Positions 3,694-21,349 of a DNA stretch of 64,000 nucleotides are shown one piece after another. The notes beneath the pieces were generated by a model that saw only the letters and a list, made by a program, of their open reading frames with translations, did no database searches and was not told the DNA's origin. The translations under genes were made by a program, and so were the position numbers. Numbering within the stretch: position 1 is the first letter of the stretch; every line of letters starts with the position of its first letter. Source of the DNA: Gammaproteobacteria bacterium (lineage in GTDB: Bacteria > Pseudomonadota > Gammaproteobacteria > Steroidobacterales > Woeseiaceae); contig JAACFJ010000006.1 in the NCBI GenBank assembly GCA_009937505.1, positions 4,923 to 68,922 on the forward strand, read 5' to 3'.

Positions 3694-5063
3694 ATGACGC
3701 CCGCAGAGGTACTAGGCCTCATCAAAGAGAAAGAGGTCAAATTTGTCGACTTTCGGTTCACGGACACGAAAGGAAAGGAACAACACGTCACCGTGCCGTC
3801 GCATACGATCGACGAGGACCTGTTCGAGGACGGCAAGATGTTCGACGGCTCGTCCATCGCCGGATGGAAGGGCATCAACGAGTCCGACATGATCCTGTTG
3901 CCCGATCCCGCGTCCGCCGTGGTCGACATCTTCACGGACGAGGTCACCATGAACCTGCGCTGCAATGTCATCGAGCCGGCGACGATGCAGGGCTATGATC
4001 GCTGCCCGCGGTCGCTGGCAGAGCGTGCCGAGGCCTACCTGAAATCGACCGGCATCGCCGATACCGCTTTCTTCGGCCCCGAGAACGAGTTCTTCGTCTT
4101 CGATCACGTCTCCTGGGACGATTCGATGCAGGGCGCGTTCTACAAGGTCGACTCCGAGGAGGGCGCCTGGAACACGAACCGCAGCCGCGAGGAGGGCAAT
4201 ACCGGGCACCGCCCGACGGTGAAGGGCGGCTATCCTCGATGTGCCTGGCACTGGAAGAGCTGGGGCTCGAGACGGAAGTTCACCACCACGAGGTTGCCAC
4301 GGCGGGCCAGTGCGAGATCGGCGTCAAGTTCAATACGCTGGTGCGCAAAGCGGACGAGGTACAGGTCCTGAAGTACGTCGTGCACAACGTTGCGCACGCT
4401 TATGGCAAGACGTCGACGTTCATGCCAAAGCCGCTCGTCAACGACAACGGCAACGGCATGCACGTGCACCAGTCTTTGTTCAAGGGTGGAGAAAACCTCT
4501 TTACCGGCGACGGCTACGGCGGCCTGTCGGATACGGCGCTGCACTATATCGGCGGCATCATCAAGCACGCCAGAGCCATCAATGCGTTTACGAACCCGGC
4601 CACTAACAGCTACAAGCGGCTGGTACCCGGCTTCGAGGCACCGACGATTCTTGCTTACTCAGCGCGCAATCGCTCTGCGTCAATTCGTATCCCGTACGAG
4701 TCGAATCCGAAGGGCCGGCGCATAGAGGTCCGCTTCCCGGATTCGATGGCCAATCCCTACCTCGCATTCTCGGCCATGATGATGGCCGGTCTCGACGGCA
4801 TCCAGAACAAGATCCACCCGGGGGACGCCATGGACAAGGATCTCTACGACCTGCCGCCCGAGGAGGAGAAACAATTGAAGCTCGTCGCGTTCTCGCTCGA
4901 TGAGGCGCTCGCGGCACTTGATGAGGATCGCGAATTCCTCAAGGCCGGCGATGTGTTTTCCGATGACCTCATCGATGCGTATATCGACCTGAAGATGGAA
5001 AATGTGACGCGACTGCGCATGACCACGCATCCGGTCGAATTCGACATGTACTACAGCCTCTGA
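3694..5063 (+). pseudogene. glnA: Glutamine synthetase type I, interrupted by an internal deletion and frameshift near 4233-4239
   Basis: Two ORFs in different frames together cover a full GS-I: 3694-4371 and 4239-5063. The first ends its homologous part at ...[10 protein letters not shown]. The second resumes at [24 protein letters not shown]. The conserved FPVPPVDS.QD.RS segment between them is missing. The total of 1370 nt is not a multiple of 3. Confidence 0.9.
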
Positions 5064-14594: not shown

Positions 14595-14695
14595 GAGGCG
14601 TCGTGTGCGCGGGCTGCGCAAGGTTGGTCGAAAGGCGGCATTATAGCAGCGCCCGGCGATGGAAATACCCCGCAAACGATCTACACTGTGCGCCC

Positions 14696-15815
14696 ATGCG
14701 CTACCTGTACATCCTGATCCCGTTCATTCTCGCCTCACCTGCGGCCGCCGTTGCCCAGGATGACGGGGCCGGTCTCGCCAAGATCAAGGAGCATGAACTC
14801 GAGGAGGTTCGCGACAAGATCAGCGATCTCAAGAAGAGCATGGACAGGAGCGCAAGGGATCGCGATCGGCTGACGGATGACCTGCAGAGCGCCGAGGTTG
14901 GCATCGCTGAAAAGCGTTTGCGCCTGCAGGACCTGGAGCGGGAGCGCGCCTACAGCGCGAAGCGCCTGGCCGAACTGGATGCCGCGATTGCCGAGCGCGA
15001 AGCGGAGCTGGCGCGGGAATCCGGGCACCTTTCGGCGCAGATCAGGGCCGCCTACATGAGCGGCAACCAGGAGAAGATCAAGCTGCTGCTGAACCAGCGC
15101 GACCCGGCAATCCTCGGCCGCATGATGACCTATTACCGGTATTTCAATGACTACAGGGCGGACAATATCGGCGCTGTAAGCTCGAAAATCCGCGAGCTGG
15201 CGGGGATGCACAGCGAAGTCGCGGCGGAAGAGGCGCGCCTCGCGGACCTCGCCAGGACGCGCTCCGCGGAGCTCGAGAAACTGGCGGCGGCGCAACAGGA
15301 GCGGCAGGCGTTGCTGGCGGCACTAAAGGACAGGATGGCGGCCGAGGGACGGGAAATAGAGCGTCTCGCGGCACAGGAAAAGGACCTGGCCCGGCTGATC
15401 GCGGAGCTGACCAGCATCCTTTCCGACTACCCGATCACGTCCGAGGAGCCATTCAGCGAGCATCGCGGTCGCCTGACGTGGCCGGTCGCGGGTACCCTGT
15501 TGCGCGACTTCGGCCAACCGCGGGTCGGCGGTGAACTGAAATGGAACGGGGTCGTGCTGGCTGCACCCATTCTCGGACTGGCTCGCAGGCATGGGCCTGC
15601 TCGTTATCGTCGACCATGGCGAGGGTTACATGACCCTGTACGGGTATAACGAGACGATTCTCAAGAACGCAGGCGACTGGGTCGCCCCGGGGGACGTAAT
15701 TGCCACGGTCGGTGACAGCGGTGGACAGGCAGACGCAGGGCTGTACTTCGAGATACGACGGGGCACCAGGCCCCTGAACCCGAGACGCTGGGTAACCCGC
15801 AGGCCCGGTGACTGA
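14696..15815 (+). pseudogene. envC: Murein hydrolase activator EnvC (M23/LytM family), interrupted by an internal deletion and frameshift near 15568-15570
   Basis: A signal peptide and long coiled coil end at ...KWNGVVLAAP. The LytM domain then resumes in another frame at FSDWLAGMGLLVIVDHGEGYMTLYGYN...GLYFEIRRGTRPLNP (track ORF 15591-15815). About 13-14 conserved residues are missing between the two parts. The 1120-nt total is not divisible by 3. Confidence 0.85.
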
Positions 15816-15921
15816 GTCGGCTTGGCCGAACTTGTCGGTCCTCACAGTACAGCGCCCACGGACTGTGGTATCGTCATTTGAACCGGCCGGGCAATGAAAC
15901 GGCCGGCGTGCGGAGTTGTGT

Positions 15922-17142
15922 ATGTCGTTGAAAGTCAGGGCTATCCTGGTCGTTGTGATCGGAACCGTAATGGGGCTGAGCCTTTCGATCGGTGGTGGTC
16001 TGCTTGCGGGGGGCGGCGCGCCCGCCGAGGAGGAGCTCGCCTGGGAGAACGCGCGGCTGTTCGCCGAGGTCATGGAGCGCGTCAAGCGGGATTATGTTGA
16101 ACCGCTGGACGATAGCCAGCTGCTCGAAAGCGCCATTCGCGGCATGGTCGGCGATCTCGATGCCCATTCCCAGTACCTCGACGCCGACGAGTATCGCGAT
16201 ATTCGCATCAGCACGACCGGCACCTACACGGGCGTCGGCGTGGAAGTCGCGGACATAGACGGCGCCATCAAGGTTGTCACGCCGATCACGGGCTCGCCGG
16301 CGGCGCGTTCCGGGATACAGAGCGGTGACCAGATCATCGCCGTTGACGGCATCGCGGTGGAGCGGGACCACCTGCAGGACACGATCGGCCGCATGCGCGG
16401 CCGTGCCGGATCGAGAATCAGCATCACGGTACTCCGTGACGACGAGGCCATCGACCACGAAATGCGGCGGGAGATCATTCGCGTCGCCAGCGTGCATTAT
16501 GAAACCATGGGCCCGTCCTACGGTTATATCCGCATCAGCCAGTTCAGCGAAACCACGGCGCGTGAACTCAGCCGCGCCATCGACGCGATGCAGGAAGCCG
16601 GCGGGGGCATGCTGGCGGGCCTGCTGCTGGACCTGCGCAACAACCCCGGCGGTGTGCTGGATTCCGCGGTCGACGTCTCCGACCTGTTTCTCGATTCGGG
16701 CGTCATCGTGTTGGCTGACGGCCGCACGAACGACGCCCGTTTCACGCGATCGGCACATCGCGGCGACGTACTCGATGGCGCCGAACTGGTGGTGCTGGTG
16801 AACGAGGGTTCCGCGTCCGCCTCGGAAATCGTGGCTGGCGCCCTGCAGGACCACGGCCGCGCGATCGTCGTCGGAACCGGCACGTTCGGCAAGGGGCTGG
16901 TACAGACGGTCATGCCCCTGTCCCAGGGCCGGGCGCTCAAGCTGACGACATCGCGTTACTACACGCCGTCAGGCGACTCCATCCACGAAACCGGCATTAC
17001 GCCGGACGTGTATGTCGAGGGCACGCCGGGTTATCCGGACATGAGCCTGAGCGGTTTTGTTGATCGCGAGCAGGACGCACAGTTGCTCGAAGCGCTGAAT
17101 CGCCTGCAGCGCGGCGATGTGATGCACAGCAACGCTCAATGA
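15922..17142 (+). CDS. ctpA: Carboxy-terminal processing peptidase (S41A, PDZ-containing)
   Basis: It has a PDZ segment (GSPAARSGIQSGDQIIAVDG), LDLRNNPGG, and the catalytic-region motifs SASASEI and FGKGLVQ. Confidence 0.9.
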   Translation: MSLKVRAILVVVIGTVMGLSLSIGGGLLAGGGAPAEEELAWENARLFAEVMERVKRDYVEPLDDSQLLESAIRGMVGDLDAHSQYLDADEYRDIRISTTGTYTGVGVEVADIDGAIKVVTPITGSPAARSGIQSGDQIIAVDGIAVERDHLQDTIGRMRGRAGSRISITVLRDDEAIDHEMRREIIRVASVHYETMGPSYGYIRISQFSETTARELSRAIDAMQEAGGGMLAGLLLDLRNNPGGVLDSAVDVSDLFLDSGVIVLADGRTNDARFTRSAHRGDVLDGAELVVLVNEGSASASEIVAGALQDHGRAIVVGTGTFGKGLVQTVMPLSQGRALKLTTSRYYTPSGDSIHETGITPDVYVEGTPGYPDMSLSGFVDREQDAQLLEALNRLQRGDVMHSNAQ

Positions 17143-17876
17143 CGTTTGCGCAATTCCGCGCCGCCGCGATCCTTCTGTTGCTCGCGTCGCAGAGTTTCGC
17201 GCAGTCCGTGCCGCGCATCGCAATCATCATCGATGATCTCGGCTACCAGATGGCGGCGGGGCACCGTGCCGTAGCGTTGCCCGGTCCGGTGGTCTGCGCG
17301 ATCCTGCCCGGCACGCCAAGGGCGGCGCAGCTGGCGCAGGCCGCCTGGGAGCGCGGCAAGGAAGTACTCCTGCACCTGCCGCTGCAGTCCGTCGATCATC
17401 ACGGCGCGGCAGAACCGGGCTCGATTACCCTCGATACGACTCGCGAGGGCTTCGCCCAGACCTTCACGATTGCGATGGAATCCGTGCCTTTCGCCGTGGG
17501 CGTCAACAGCCATCGCGGTAGCCTGCTCACGCAGCACCCGGGCCACATGAGCTGGCTGATGGAGGAAATTCTCCGGGCCGGCGGGCTCTACTTCGTCGAC
17601 AGCTACACCACGCATCGCAGCGTCGCGCTGCAGATCGCATCGGAGCGAGGCGTGCCGGCGATCAAGCGGGACGTGTTCCTGGATTCGGATCCGGCGCCCG
17701 AAAAGGTCGCGCAGGAGTTCGAGCGCCTCAAGGCGCTGGCGCGGGAGCGCGGACTCGCGGTGGGCATCGGACACCCTTACCCCGAGACGCTGGCGTTCCT
17801 GGAACGGGCGATCCCGAGCCTTGTCGAAGAAGGCATACAGCTGGTACCGCTTCGTGAACTGATAGACTTTCCCTGA
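17139..17876 (+). CDS. yibQ: Divergent polysaccharide deacetylase family protein (YibQ-like)
   Basis: A signal peptide is followed by [10 protein letters not shown]...HLPL...NSHRGS. An ATGA overlap with the ctpA stop fits the envC-ctpA-yibQ order known from enterics. Confidence 0.8.
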
Positions 17877-18805
17877 TGATGAACAAAGTTGTTGCTTGTA
17901 TCGTCGCGAGCCTGCTGGCATTGCCTGTCATTGCCGCCGACGGTCCATTGTTACTTGCGCAAGCCAATGAGGTGGCCTGCACGATGGATTACACGCCGGT
18001 TTGCGGAGCCGACGGCAAAACCTACAGCAATGAGTGCGTCGCCAACGTGGCGGGCGCCGAAATCGTTGCCGAAGGCGAATGTCCCGCCGCGACCAACGGC
18101 GAGAACGCGGGTGAGGAAGCGGGCGAAAGCGACGGTTCGGATACGGCCGCCGACGAACAGGACGTCGTCGAGGAAGAATCAGACGAAGACGAATCTCTCG
18201 CGACCCCGGGGGAGTGCAGCGAAGATTACGATCCGGTCTGCGGCATCGACGGAAACACCTACATCAACGAGTGTTTTGCGGCGAAATCCCGCGTCGAAAT
18301 CGCCGGCCTCGGCGCCTGTGCGCCGAGCGGTTGTCCGGGCGCCCCGGATCCGGTCTGTGGCATGAACGGTCGCACCTACCTGAACCGCTGCGAAGCAAAC
18401 GTGGACCGCGTGCCGGTGCAGCGCGCAAGCGCGTGTGACATCAATAACTGCCCGCAGGTATTCGCGCCCGTCTGCGGCAACGACGGTGTGACTTACGAAA
18501 ACGCCTGCTTCGCCGACACGGCCGGAATTACGAGCTATACCGTCGGCATCTGCAACCAGCGCCCGTGTCCGAACCTGTTCGTTCCCGTGTGTGGTTCGGA
18601 CGATCTGACCTACGCCAATGCCTGCTATGCGGAGCGGCGCGGAACCCGCATCGACTATGCCGGCATGTGTGAGGAACAGGGGCGCAACTGTCCGCGGGTT
18701 TACCTGCCGGTGTGCGGGCTCGACGGCGTTACCTACGATAACGAGTGCCAGCTCGAAAACGCGGGCGTCATCAAGGCCTATGCCGGCGCCTGCATCGGCG
18801 ACTAG
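17876..18805 (+). CDS. Secreted protein with six tandem Kazal-type inhibitor-like domains
   Basis: A signal peptide is followed by six repeats of C-x(4-5)-PVCG-x-(D/N)G-x-TY-x-N-x-C-x(n)-C. Examples are [20 protein letters not shown] and [20 protein letters not shown]. An acidic linker follows repeat 1. The start overlaps the yibQ stop (TGATG). Confidence 0.8.
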
Positions 18806-18946
18806 CTAGCCGAAAAGCGTCAGGCGGCACGATACGGCGTTGAAGCCGGCCGCAAAATGCTCATGTACTCCCGTGTACACTGCGCTTTCTCGGCCGTCTT
18901 CGCCATGTCTCGCACTCGCCTGACGTTTTTCGTGGTTTGACAGAGA

Positions 18947-21349
18947 TCAGGTCCAGGCGGGCCTGAGCCGGCCCTTGGAGTCGGGTGAATACGGCATCCA
19001 CGCGAGCGCGAGTACCGGTACATGAACGTCTGTCGTTTTCGCGCGAACGACGATCTCTTCCAGGTCCTCGGCCTGTGCATCGAAGCCAGTATCGAGCGCA
19101 TCGACTTCCTTTTCGAGCCGTTGGTTGAGCGCCTCGAGATCAGCGCGGACCTTTTCCGCCGTCTGTTTGGCGCGGGCCACGTCGGCCGCTTCCTTGCGCG
19201 CGCTGCCGGCCGTCTTGATCGCGGTGCCGACGCGGCTCGCCGACGTTGTCGAGAGCCGCTTCCGTCCGAGCACGGCACCCAGGATTGCGGTGCCGATTGA
19301 GACGGCCGTGTCCAGCGTCTTTTTACTCACCTGCTGCTGCTCGCGCGCGATTGCCTGTTGTGCCCGCATCAGGCGATTCTCGAGCGTCGTTGCCTTGCCT
19401 GCATAGCGCTTGCGTAGTTTCGCGATTGCCTGGTCGCGTTTCTCGCTGGCCAGCTCCTGCAGGCGGACGCGAAAGTCGCCCTCTGATTCGCCGGGCACAG
19501 AGGTCAGCCGGAAACGTTTGTTCCTGTAGAGGATGATTGTCTCGTTCCGGCGAACCCAGCCCTTGAACTCGCGCTGCCACGCCGTGTACCGCTTCGCGAT
19601 AGCGGCCGCCCCGGGGAGCTCAGCGAACGAGGCGCCGGGAACGGCGGCCTCACTCAGCGCTTCGACCGCCATGTCCAGCGGCTCGGCGTTGTCCCAGTCG
19701 ATAGCCACGGGACCATCTTCGATCTCGACGGTGTACAGTGCGCTGCGCTCGTCTTCGACCCGGTAACGCGCGTTCGAAAAGACAAGGCTGGCGCCACCGA
19801 CCAGGCGCGGAAAATAGGTCACATCCTCCGCCCCTCCCGGCACGAAGTATTGGTCGATAGCGGGCGGCAGCGCGGGCGCGTCCGAGCTGCCCTTCTGTTT
19901 CGGTTTCGCGGCCCCTGCCGGGCTCGTGGCAGCAGCCTTCTGCGCATCGCCCATGAGCGTGCGAATATGGTCCCGGGTCATCGGGCCTGCGAGGTAGGAC
20001 ATGACCCAGCGGGTCCCGAACACGACGGGCGCGTCCTCGTGCACGTTGTGCAGCAGGAAGCGGCGTTTGCCGAGGCCGGCAAGCGTTCGCTCCATCGCCT
20101 GCTTGTCGAAGTCGCCCTGGCTTGCGCCTTCGAGACCTTCCATAACCCTGGCCTTGTCGCGCTCCGTCTGCAGCCGCCCGATGAACCAGGTGCCGGTGTT
20201 TGACAGGCCCTTGTAATCGAGATCGACCGGGTTCTGCGTCGCGAGCACCAGCCCGAGGCCATACGCGCGTGCTTGTTTCAGCAAGGTCAGGAACAGCAAC
20301 TTGGATGGCGGATTGGCAACCGGCGGCATGAAGCCGAATATCTCGTCCATGTACAGGATCGCGCGCAGGCTGGAGGTGCCCTGCTGCGCCCGCATCCAGG
20401 CGATGATCTCGTTCAGCAGCATCGACACGAAGAACATCCGCGACGCGTCGTCCAGGTGTGCAATGGACATGACCGAAATGCGCGGCTTGCCTTCGGCGGT
20501 GTAGAGCAGGTTTTTCGCGCTCAGTGGTTCGCCCTGCATCCAGGCTTCGAAGCCGGGTGCCGCCAGCAGGTTGTTGAGCCGCATCGCGAGCGCGAAGCGG
20601 TCCTTCTCCGGGAAAAAGGCATCGAGGCTCATGACGCCGATCGTGGTAAACGGCGGGTTCTGGATCGCGGCGATCAGCGCCGCTATGTCCAGTTCCCCGC
20701 CTTCCTGCCACGCGGCATCCAGCAGGCGGGAGATGAGTATGTGCTCGCGGCTGGCGACCGGGTCGGCATTAATGCCGAGCAGCGTCAGGATGCCGGTCGC
20801 TGTTGCCTGCACGCGCTCGCGGTACAGGTCGAGGTCATCCATGAGCGCCGCTTCAGGCGCTGAAAATGATTTCAGTACGGAAACGGGGAGCCCGGCATTG
20901 CTGCCCGGCGTGTAGATGGCCATGTCGACGTTGTTGCGCAGCTGGGCGATGCGCTTGCCCGACTGGCCCCACTTGCCGAGGCCCTTCTTCCACAAGGCTG
21001 CTTGAGCCGCGGCGTAGTCGTCGACGGTTTGTCCCTGGTCGCTGGCGCTGCGCGGGTTTACCCATGGGCGGAAATCGGTGGGCGCCAGCTTCGGGAACGT
21101 CAGCAGCAGGTTACCCATGTCGCCCTTGGGATCGATGGCGATGACCGGGATGTGATCCAGGGCAGCCTCTTCCAGCAGGCCTATGCCGAGTCCTGTCTTG
21201 CCGGAACCCGTCATGCCGATAATCACGGCGTGGGTCGTAAGGTCCTTCGAGTCGTACAGGACGAGCTCGTCCGTGAGTGCGTCCGAGTCCGCGTCGTGAC
21301 GCTTGCCGAGATAGAAGCTGCCGAGTTTCTCGAAGTCCGGCATGGCCAT
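18947..21349 (-). CDS. HerA/FtsK-like P-loop ATPase (DUF87/helicase-HerA-type core) with a long C-terminal coiled-coil region
   Basis: The ORF is 800 aa. Walker A is GMTGSGKTG and Walker B is ILYMDEIFGF. The motif LVLATQNPVDLD is typical of HerA/VirB4-like ATPases. The C-terminal roughly 250 aa are rich in heptad-like charged repeats. Confidence 0.7.
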   Translation of the reverse strand: MAMPDFEKLGSFYLGKRHDADSDALTDELVLYDSKDLTTHAVIIGMTGSGKTGLGIGLLEEAALDHIPVIAIDPKGDMGNLLLTFPKLAPTDFRPWVNPRSASDQGQTVDDYAAAQAALWKKGLGKWGQSGKRIAQLRNNVDMAIYTPGSNAGLPVSVLKSFSAPEAALMDDLDLYRERVQATATGILTLLGINADPVASREHILISRLLDAAWQEGGELDIAALIAAIQNPPFTTIGVMSLDAFFPEKDRFALAMRLNNLLAAPGFEAWMQGEPLSAKNLLYTAEGKPRISVMSIAHLDDASRMFFVSMLLNEIIAWMRAQQGTSSLRAILYMDEIFGFMPPVANPPSKLLFLTLLKQARAYGLGLVLATQNPVDLDYKGLSNTGTWFIGRLQTERDKARVMEGLEGASQGDFDKQAMERTLAGLGKRRFLLHNVHEDAPVVFGTRWVMSYLAGPMTRDHIRTLMGDAQKAAATSPAGAAKPKQKGSSDAPALPPAIDQYFVPGGAEDVTYFPRLVGGASLVFSNARYRVEDERSALYTVEIEDGPVAIDWDNAEPLDMAVEALSEAAVPGASFAELPGAAAIAKRYTAWQREFKGWVRRNETIILYRNKRFRLTSVPGESEGDFRVRLQELASEKRDQAIAKLRKRYAGKATTLENRLMRAQQAIAREQQQVSKKTLDTAVSIGTAILGAVLGRKRLSTTSASRVGTAIKTAGSARKEAADVARAKQTAEKVRADLEALNQRLEKEVDALDTGFDAQAEDLEEIVVRAKTTDVHVPVLALAWMPYSPDSKGRLRPAWT

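Follow-up and report, generated by a model that had tools for sequence, protein, structure and literature searches.

What would a bacterium use a chain of six Kazal-type protease inhibitor domains for, and what is the gene for it doing at the end of an operon for splitting the septal wall? Both questions are raised by a stretch of 64,000 nucleotides (positions 4,923 to 68,922 of contig JAACFJ010000006.1, assembly GCA_009937505.1; hereafter the window) from a member of the Woeseiaceae, abundant marine-sediment Gammaproteobacteria that are thought to live on detrital protein. The Kazal array gene (17876-18805, + strand) is the last of a run of + strand genes that includes homologues of envC, ctpA and yibQ, and its uninterrupted frame encodes a precursor of 309 amino acids. 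We suggest that the product is probably a periplasmic, ecotin-like, multi-specific canonical inhibitor of subtilisin-type (S8) and trypsin-type (S1) proteases; periplasmic export, inhibitory activity and target protease classes are what we infer from the features described below.

A chain of six predicted two-disulfide heads

Membership of the Kazal family, proposed in a first-pass annotation from a repeated cysteine motif, is borne out by profile searches. Both Kazal_1 (PF00050; E 1.2e-48, 163.3 bits against a cut-off of 21) and Kazal_2 (PF07648; E 3.6e-38, 129.9 bits against a cut-off of 22.8) match the translation in six stretches, and all six heads lie above the cut-off in the genome profile search. 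The six tandem copies and their motif had been read correctly: every head is spaced C-x7-C-x10-C-x14-C and begins C-x5-PVCG, the gap before PVCG being always five residues. A chance match is excluded by the profile scores together with the invariance of this spacing, which is identical across all six heads in 64 of 69 aligned orthologues. Of the precursor's cysteines, 24 are in heads and one is in the signal peptide.

The chain opens with a predicted Sec signal peptide (residues 1-20; 17876-17935, + strand like all features of the gene), which was read by eye from the sequence rather than called by a predictor. It consists of MMNK, with the lysine as n-region, a hydrophobic core and V-I-A before the cut, after which the mature protein would begin with ADGP. 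Comparable signal peptides are found at the start of all orthologues, in agreement with the first reading of this gene.

Head 1 (17978-18082; Cys35, 43, 54 and 69) carries the loop C-T-M-D-Y with a predicted P1 residue Met37. It aligns to the loop ACTLEY of the ovomucoid third domain, where Met37 falls on the P1 Leu18 (ovomucoid P1 numbering was taken from the titles of Protein Data Bank (PDB) entries). The acidic spacer noted earlier follows as a linker of 44 residues (18083-18214) with 17 Asp or Glu and no Lys or Arg; its composition, length and low model confidence point to disorder. Head 2 (18215-18319; Cys114, 122, 133 and 148) has the loop C-S-E-D-Y and predicted P1 Glu, head 3 (18332-18436; Cys153, 161, 172 and 187) has C-P-G-A-P and predicted P1 Gly, and head 4 (18449-18553; Cys192, 200, 211 and 226) has C-P-Q-V-F and predicted P1 Gln. 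They are followed by head 5 (18566-18670; Cys231, 239, 250 and 265), with C-P-N-L-F and predicted P1 Asn, and head 6 (18689-18793; Cys272, 280, 291 and 306), with C-P-R-V-Y and predicted P1 Arg, after which the protein ends in the tail I-G-D. The predicted P1 series of heads 1-6 in the window is therefore Met, Glu, Gly, Gln, Asn, Arg, and P2 is Pro in heads 3-6.

The classical six-cysteine Kazal framework (bridges 1-5, 2-4 and 3-6) is not present, since the equivalents of C1 and C5 are absent from each head. This absence excludes the classical subtype, not the Kazal family, and the cysteine topology is compatible with the original domain call: by their cysteine pattern the heads belong to the Kazal family (MEROPS I1) in its non-classical, two-disulfide GmSPI-2 subtype, with predicted bridges C2-C4 and C3-C6. 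GmSPI-2, from Galleria mellonella, has the disulfides Cys5-24 and Cys13-39 and P1 Thr7, and is potent on subtilisin and proteinase K (PMC4169406). Its structures (4hgu, 2m5x) have the same C-x7-C-x10-C-x14-C spacing; the reactive loop runs from the first cysteine to the second, and P1 is the second residue after the first cysteine. It is, however, a single domain of 36 residues in insect silk with demonstrated activity, whereas the bacterial protein, a predicted exported inhibitor, strings six such domains together.

An AlphaFold2 model was built on an alignment of the 69 orthologue sequences. Its mean pLDDT (predicted local distance difference test) is 82; most ten-residue blocks across the heads average above 90, and values below 50 are found in the signal-peptide region and the acidic linker (residues 73-98 and 104-108). 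Each modelled head is composed of strand-strand-helix-strand. In Foldseek searches of the PDB, a single head superimposes on GmSPI-2 (4hgu) with a template modelling (TM) score of 0.83, a root-mean-square deviation of 0.8 Å and 58% identity, and on trypsin-bound LDTI (1an1_I) with a TM score of 0.90, 0.5 Å and 51% identity. Domain 1 of CrSPI-1 (3pis) matches at 0.4 Å, and 2kmo and many ovomucoid and SPINK1 complexes also match; the superpositions on 4hgu, 1an1_I, 2kmo and 3pis span 0.4-0.8 Å. All six heads are thus modelled with the Kazal fold and an exposed reactive-site loop.

The same compact fold is shared with LDTI (1an1, 1ldt, 2kmo), CrSPI-1, infestin and rhodniin, as is Pro at P2, seen here in heads 3-6. 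These are animal proteins that act on host blood or immune proteases, and LDTI differs from the bacterial heads in having three disulfides and a single head.

Reactive-site variation and candidate targets

Conservation was assessed in the 64 six-head orthologues among the 69 aligned; the genomes are related, so the counts are not independent. The scaffold positions (P4' Pro, P5' Val, Cys, Gly, Thr-Tyr and Asn) have near-zero entropy. The segment P-V-C-G is invariant or nearly so in each head, and the loop-supporting Asn of T-Y-x-N-x-C is invariant in four heads (N131, N170, N248, N289) and conserved in at least 90% of sequences in the other two (N52, N209). By contrast with this fixed scaffold, the loops of most heads vary most at a few positions, P1, P1' and P3' among them, a distribution of change that reads as the signature of canonical inhibitors.

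At P1, each head nevertheless has its own favoured residue. Met is found in 44/64 sequences at head 1, Glu in 58/64 at head 2 and Arg in 41/64 at head 6; Ser (46/64) and Gly (11/64) are the main residues at head 3, Lys (30/64) and Arg (8/64) at head 4, where the family consensus loop is C-P-K-V-F, and Asn (28/64) and Arg (15/64) at head 5. In 380 of 384 cases, the closest match to a head among other genomes is the head with the same index, and the same head is 68-79% identical between genomes, against 46% for different heads within one protein. The heads are therefore orthologous by position, and the six-head design is older than the radiation of the Woeseiaceae. Linkers between heads 2-6 are fixed at 4, 4, 4 and 6 residues. 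The linker after head 1 has a median of 7 residues in relatives and reaches 29-44 residues in the window's clade only, so that the acidic spacer is confined to this clade. A C-terminal tail of the form [ILV]-G-Asp is found in most orthologues. Three close homologues with three or four heads (P0010, P0026, P0029) were considered as a different architecture and set aside, as they represent the same locus frameshifted in error-prone assemblies.

Tandem heads with a P1 residue and a specificity of their own are also known from ovomucoid, ovoinhibitor and dipetalogastin-like proteins. The heads of ovomucoid and ovoinhibitor have six cysteines and longer linkers, whereas in the bacterial array the C1-C5 bridge is missing and most heads are 4-7 residues apart.

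Several of these features could also be accommodated if the chain inhibited nothing, and were a rigid, disulfide-rich binder or spacer that holds an envelope ligand, like the repeats of follistatin, agrin and the HtrA1 N-terminus. Follistatin-like binding was among the roles first proposed. Over the whole chain, follistatin complexes match the fold best (E 2.7e-06), agrin is the best PDB match by sequence, the very short, fixed linkers of 4-6 residues suggest a stiff rod, and fusion of the array to YibQ (see the next section) is tolerated. However, the whole-chain follistatin matches have TM scores of just 0.17-0.20, against 0.83-0.90 for single heads on true inhibitors, and they reflect tandem repetition, not a common architecture. 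Follistatin and agrin share with the array a tandem series of Kazal-like modules, but each of theirs has six cysteines and is accompanied by extra sub-domains, and their function is ligand binding, not protease inhibition. Moreover, every head retains the Asn that supports the loop and also the geometry from P2 to P3' seen in active inhibitors, and variation at P1, P1' and P3' fits residues in contact with a protease, not a common binding face. A purely non-inhibitory role is hence considered improbable.

If the array is a multi-specific inhibitor, as we prefer, the Sec pathway would export a chain of six independent two-disulfide heads, each offering a substrate-like reactive-site loop. The heads would fold in the periplasm with the help of the DsbA system, homologues of which are present in the window's genome. 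The chain might then serve as a standing trap for S8 and S1 (trypsin- or chymotrypsin-type) proteases reaching the cell envelope, with one protease bound tightly per head in the standard (Laskowski) manner, and the six P1 types (Met, Glu, Ser/Gly, Lys/Gln, Asn, Arg) would widen the range of enzymes caught. Envelope proteins would be shielded in this way against proteases entering from a protease-rich sediment community. Woeseiales inhabit protein-degrading sediment communities and are themselves peptidase-rich, S8 included (PMC7082342).

The proposed job is that of ecotin (MEROPS I11), the periplasmic broad-range shield of E. coli against entering S1-type proteases (PMC9904509). Ecotin has an unrelated fold and is dimeric, and the likeness is a functional analogy only. 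Ecotin-like protection appears to fit best among the roles put forward in the first-pass annotation. Should the array prove to be a broad periplasmic shield, it would show that the task of ecotin in enterobacteria had been solved independently a second time, and it would bear on protease warfare in sediments.

Possible targets were surveyed in the window's genome, which is 88% complete. By profile, no ecotin (PF03974) is found in this genome, the E. coli control being found, and it contains no serpin. Two subtilases with PA-domain inserts are encoded, one of which is laid out as I9 propeptide, S8, PA and fn3_6, and there are five S41 matches, CtpA included. The three S1-fold proteins of the genome are all of HtrA type with PDZ domains, and no free-standing trypsin- or chymotrypsin-like enzyme that would suit the Lys, Arg and Glu heads was found in it; these heads are thus left without an obvious endogenous S1 target.

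The two subtilases raise the question whether the array guards the periplasm from the cell's own large secreted subtilases during folding or transit, as AprI/Inh do in metalloprotease secretors. The I9/S8/PA/fn3_6 layout, which we take to be that of the plant subtilase P69B, would agree with such self-protection, as would the activity of GmSPI-2-type heads on subtilisin-family enzymes and the S8 peptidases among the many of the Woeseiales. Two-disulfide Kazal domains of Phytophthora infestans, EPI1 and EPI10, stably inhibit subtilisin-family proteases (PMC1236909), and EPI1 and EPI10 inactivate P69B. There, too, a microbe exports Kazal domains with just two disulfides, but EPI1a lacks the third and sixth cysteines where the first and fifth are missing here, and the EPI proteins are eukaryotic effectors that act on a host enzyme. 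Against self-protection, orthologues of the large subtilase are found in 80 of 151 genomes of the order, and Kazal proteins in 18 of 151; this subtilase is widespread in Kazal-less sister families, so that the two do not co-occur, and co-occurrence was abandoned as a signal of the target. The subtilases also carry an I9 propeptide inhibitor of their own, and six heads with differing P1 residues exceed the need of two enzymes. Self-protection from these enzymes is therefore regarded as unlikely.

Some observations weigh against a broad inhibitor. Some eukaryotic arrays of Kazal-like domains, those of follistatin and agrin among them, do not inhibit proteases, and such arrays gave the top whole-chain fold matches. 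The short linkers from head 2 to head 6 (4-6 residues) may prevent large proteases from being bound by all heads at the same time, and heads with Gly, Ser or Asn at P1 are expected to be weak on most well-studied enzymes, as in the P1 series of ovomucoid. Strict retention behind one operon throughout the history of the family could indicate a more specific job than general protection. In addition, the literature searched, in part with poor targeting, yielded no Kazal protein of bacteria whose function had been tested, which agrees with the near absence of functional characterisation asserted at first pass. For the same reason, a conserved, single-copy, six-headed array is a good entry point to the bacterial members of the family, and the two-disulfide heads, which are small, stable and naturally diverse at P1, may serve as scaffolds for inhibitor design.

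Placement behind a septal operon and the S41 question

Upstream of the array, ctpA (15916-17142, + strand) encodes a periplasmic C-terminal processing protease of family S41 that carries a PDZ domain (Peptidase_S41, E 1.2e-54), which also matches PDZ_6 and CtpB_N-like and scores over the cut-off of the prc subfamily TIGR00225. It is followed by yibQ (17139-17876, + strand), the 245-residue product of which is a homologue of YibQ/SddA, a divergent polysaccharide deacetylase (Polysacc_deac_2, E 4.2e-69, residues 29-241), and has no long C-terminal tail beyond the catalytic domain. The overlaps reported between these genes are confirmed. The ATG of yibQ (17139-17141) overlaps the TGA of ctpA (17140-17142) as ATGA, and the final A of the yibQ TGA (17874-17876) is the first base of the Kazal ATG (17876-17878) in TGATG, a second ATG following directly. 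A promoter and terminator scan detected no convincing terminator between envC and the Kazal stop, just a weak 5-bp stem inside ctpA, and no sigma-70-like site, a result that says little about internal promoters. Because of the gene overlaps and the absence of terminators, we infer that the Kazal gene is co-transcribed with envC-ctpA-yibQ.

Gene order was compared in 80 Woeseiaceae loci. With almost no exceptions, gpsA-secB on one strand is followed by envC-ctpA-yibQ-Kazal and then by a convergent HerA-like gene, abgT or both. On the basis of predicted starts, 67 of 68 loci have yibQ upstream of the Kazal gene and in its orientation. The gap between them is at most 10 nt in 12 loci, 11-200 nt in 31, about 300 nt in one and about 640-690 nt in 23. 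The translational coupling proposed from the window thus holds for the overlap there, but just 12 of the 67 loci have so short a gap. The long gaps (23/67 loci) contain a gene for a class-I S-adenosylmethionine-dependent methyltransferase of about 205-220 residues that overlaps the yibQ stop (for example L053:7306-7923 and L023:7256-7918). The enzyme is cytoplasmic and has no export signal, and the 3' end of the operon seems to be a site where accessory genes collect.

In ten genomes from eight sister families, envC and yibQ have the same arrangement, with ctpA between them in 9/10, and nothing Kazal-like follows. Accordingly, the Kazal gene was appended to the 3' end of an older envC-ctpA-yibQ(sddA) septal operon in the ancestor of the Woeseiaceae. 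Its position would provide growth-linked co-expression with exposed periplasmic cell-wall enzymes, which the array may shield. Outside the family the linkage is not found: there is no envC, ctpA or yibQ beside the Kazal genes of three genomes of the order (G037, G612, G644), one of the class (G335), a metagenome bacterium (P0025) and a metagenome-assembled genome of the Myxococcota (P0033), and on one of two Myxococcota contigs an unrelated S41 gene is found 5 kb from the Kazal gene. The conserved linkage suggested at first pass is therefore a trait of the Woeseiaceae and not a general rule for bacterial Kazal genes, contrary to what would be expected of a CtpA regulator.

In one lineage the array is fused to its neighbour. 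P0005, of 501 residues, is an in-frame fusion of the YibQ signal peptide and deacetylase domain, a short linker and six heads that lack their own signal peptide. It is encoded in three independent metagenome assemblies (L119:2849-4354, L120:848-2353, L121:681-2186) in the usual envC-ctpA context, and also in L092; its presence in three assemblies argues that it is not a sequencing slip. By its use of the YibQ signal peptide, the array is assigned to the compartment in which a periplasmic enzyme works, and the fusion shows that the array tolerates tethering to YibQ. A true fusion is found solely in the P0005/L092 lineage. Long open frames upstream of other Kazal genes (456 and 540 residues, among others) were rejected as fusions, as they reflect chance openness in GC-rich DNA and are not in the frame of yibQ.

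The neighbours of the array have been studied in other bacteria. E. coli YibQ is SddA, which acts in the periplasm and deacetylates the denuded glycan strands that septal amidases leave behind. It is co-expressed with envC and becomes more abundant when prc is mutated, which suggests that the S41 tail-specific protease Prc degrades it; according to an AlphaFold3 model, Prc may engage the flexible C-terminal tail of SddA (bioRxiv 10.1101/2025.02.18.638797). In Pseudomonas aeruginosa, envC, ctpA and PA5135 (yibQ) form a single operon, with a promoter for ctpA inside it, and cell-wall endopeptidases are degraded by LbcA-CtpA (PMC12569750). The Kazal gene thus closes a septal wall-splitting operon in which regulated S41 proteolysis recurs.

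These findings invite the view that the array is a dedicated regulator of S41 proteolysis, binding CtpA or a Prc-like paralogue or capping its substrates, and thereby tuning turnover of SddA/YibQ and wall hydrolases at division. Its place after ctpA-yibQ in 67/68 loci and its fusion to the YibQ C-terminus would suit such a role, as would the E. coli and P. aeruginosa results; the conserved [ILV]-G-Asp tail should also be a poor handle for tail-specific proteases. On the other hand, six heads that keep six different P1 residues are ill-suited to one target, the ten sister-family genomes have the envC-yibQ arrangement (ctpA between in nine) and an equally short YibQ with no Kazal protein, Kazal genes outside the Woeseiaceae are unlinked to the operon, and in 23 loci a gene for a cytoplasmic methyltransferase stands between yibQ and the array. 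We know of no Kazal or other canonical inhibitor that acts on the Ser/Lys-dyad enzymes of S41; the known targets of Kazal inhibitors are S1 and S8 proteases. Control of CtpA, as raised in the first-pass annotation, is for these reasons unsupported, and regulation of S41 proteolysis in general seems quite unlikely.

The narrower proposal, that the array is a dedicated partner of the septal module, of which one or more heads bind CtpA or a Prc-like paralogue or cap SddA and so set the lifetime of SddA and hydrolases, is judged very unlikely. It is kept alive by the family-wide placement after ctpA-sddA, the SddA-Kazal fusion and E. coli SddA as a Prc substrate. If true, the array would be the first protein to inhibit a tail-specific protease of the S41 type, the Kazal loop would have gained a new use on a Ser/Lys-dyad enzyme, and tuning of S41 proteolysis of septal enzymes would be a new layer of control over cell separation. 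A further idea, that SddA once had a protease-sensitive C-terminal tail and that the array took its place, was discarded, since YibQ is equally short (9-33 residues past the domain) in the ten Kazal-less sister-family genomes.

Distribution and flanking features

Distribution was determined as the number of genomes matching the Kazal_2 profile. In the Woeseiaceae, 144/150 genomes are positive, including 93/93 of those of high quality and 16/16 genera. In other families of this GTDB order the count is 3/136 (18/151 for the order draw overall); an even draw of the class outside the genus gave 1 of about 398, and control genomes gave 0/14. The description of Kazal domains as sporadic in bacteria is thus apt per genome, as the class draw indicates, but it does not apply to the abundant Woeseiaceae, where they are universal. 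The main genome survey of the Woeseiales, an order with the cultured member Woeseia oceani XK5, left peptidase-inhibitor matches unreported (PMC7082342).

The window's genome has a single Kazal gene. Its GC content (0.62) and GC content at third codon positions (0.745) are inside the range of the adjacent genes, and recent horizontal acquisition is ruled out by these neighbour-like values together with orthology of the heads across 16 genera; the gene is old within the Woeseiaceae. Some other genomes (G443, G457, G464, G487, G496 and others) have 7-14 Kazal_2 matches and open frames of 370-660 residues, which suggests that some genera of the family carry extra heads or a second Kazal gene.

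Many bacterial Kazal arrays are present in a large protein database, and some of them, from Myxococcota and Saprospiraceae, already bear the name 'Kazal-type serine protease inhibitor domain-containing protein'. The sequence matches also include dipetalogastin-like proteins of insects and molluscs. In bacteria the domain is therefore rare per genome, not unknown. The Kazal protein of G037 (L116:7044-7532) has a signal peptide and three four-cysteine heads, and that of G335 (L098:811-2091) is 426 residues long with two heads, each after a further cysteine-rich segment. A Myxococcota array (L132/L133:8543-13182) lies near a very large gene of the SpvB/RHS/TcdB_toxin_midN type, a different context that suggests a possible relation to antagonism.

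The first gene of the operon, envC-like (14603-15815, + strand), would encode a coiled coil and a LytM/M23 domain, but in this assembly a frameshift near 15570-15590 interrupts it. The coiled-coil frame (14603-15649) matches NCBIfam EnvC (E 1.2e-22) over the coiled coil only, and another frame (15591-15815) encodes positions 34-96 of Peptidase_M23, the first third of the M23 domain being missing. In relatives envC is intact (381-385 residues). The split is likelier an assembly error, because other frameshifts were flagged in the window at first pass.

On the 3' side of the array are two convergent genes, for an 800-residue HerA/DUF87-like ATPase and for abgT. A long, near-perfect hairpin of 122 nt (18811-18932, by RNA folding) lies between the Kazal gene and the HerA-like gene; its energy is -68.5 kcal/mol (z -4.6), and 0/200 shuffled sequences were equally stable. 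The ends of its stem are A/T-rich on both strands. It is likely to be a bidirectional transcription stop that closes the operon; alternatively, it may be a repeat element. The 800-residue protein (18947-21349, - strand) has an N-terminal HerA/DUF87 P-loop ATPase region. Its gene is kept in the position convergent to the Kazal gene in most Woeseiaceae loci, with no partner genes evident. In the lineage with the YibQ-Kazal fusion, it is replaced by a gene for an extracytoplasmic function (ECF) sigma factor, which follows on the same strand.

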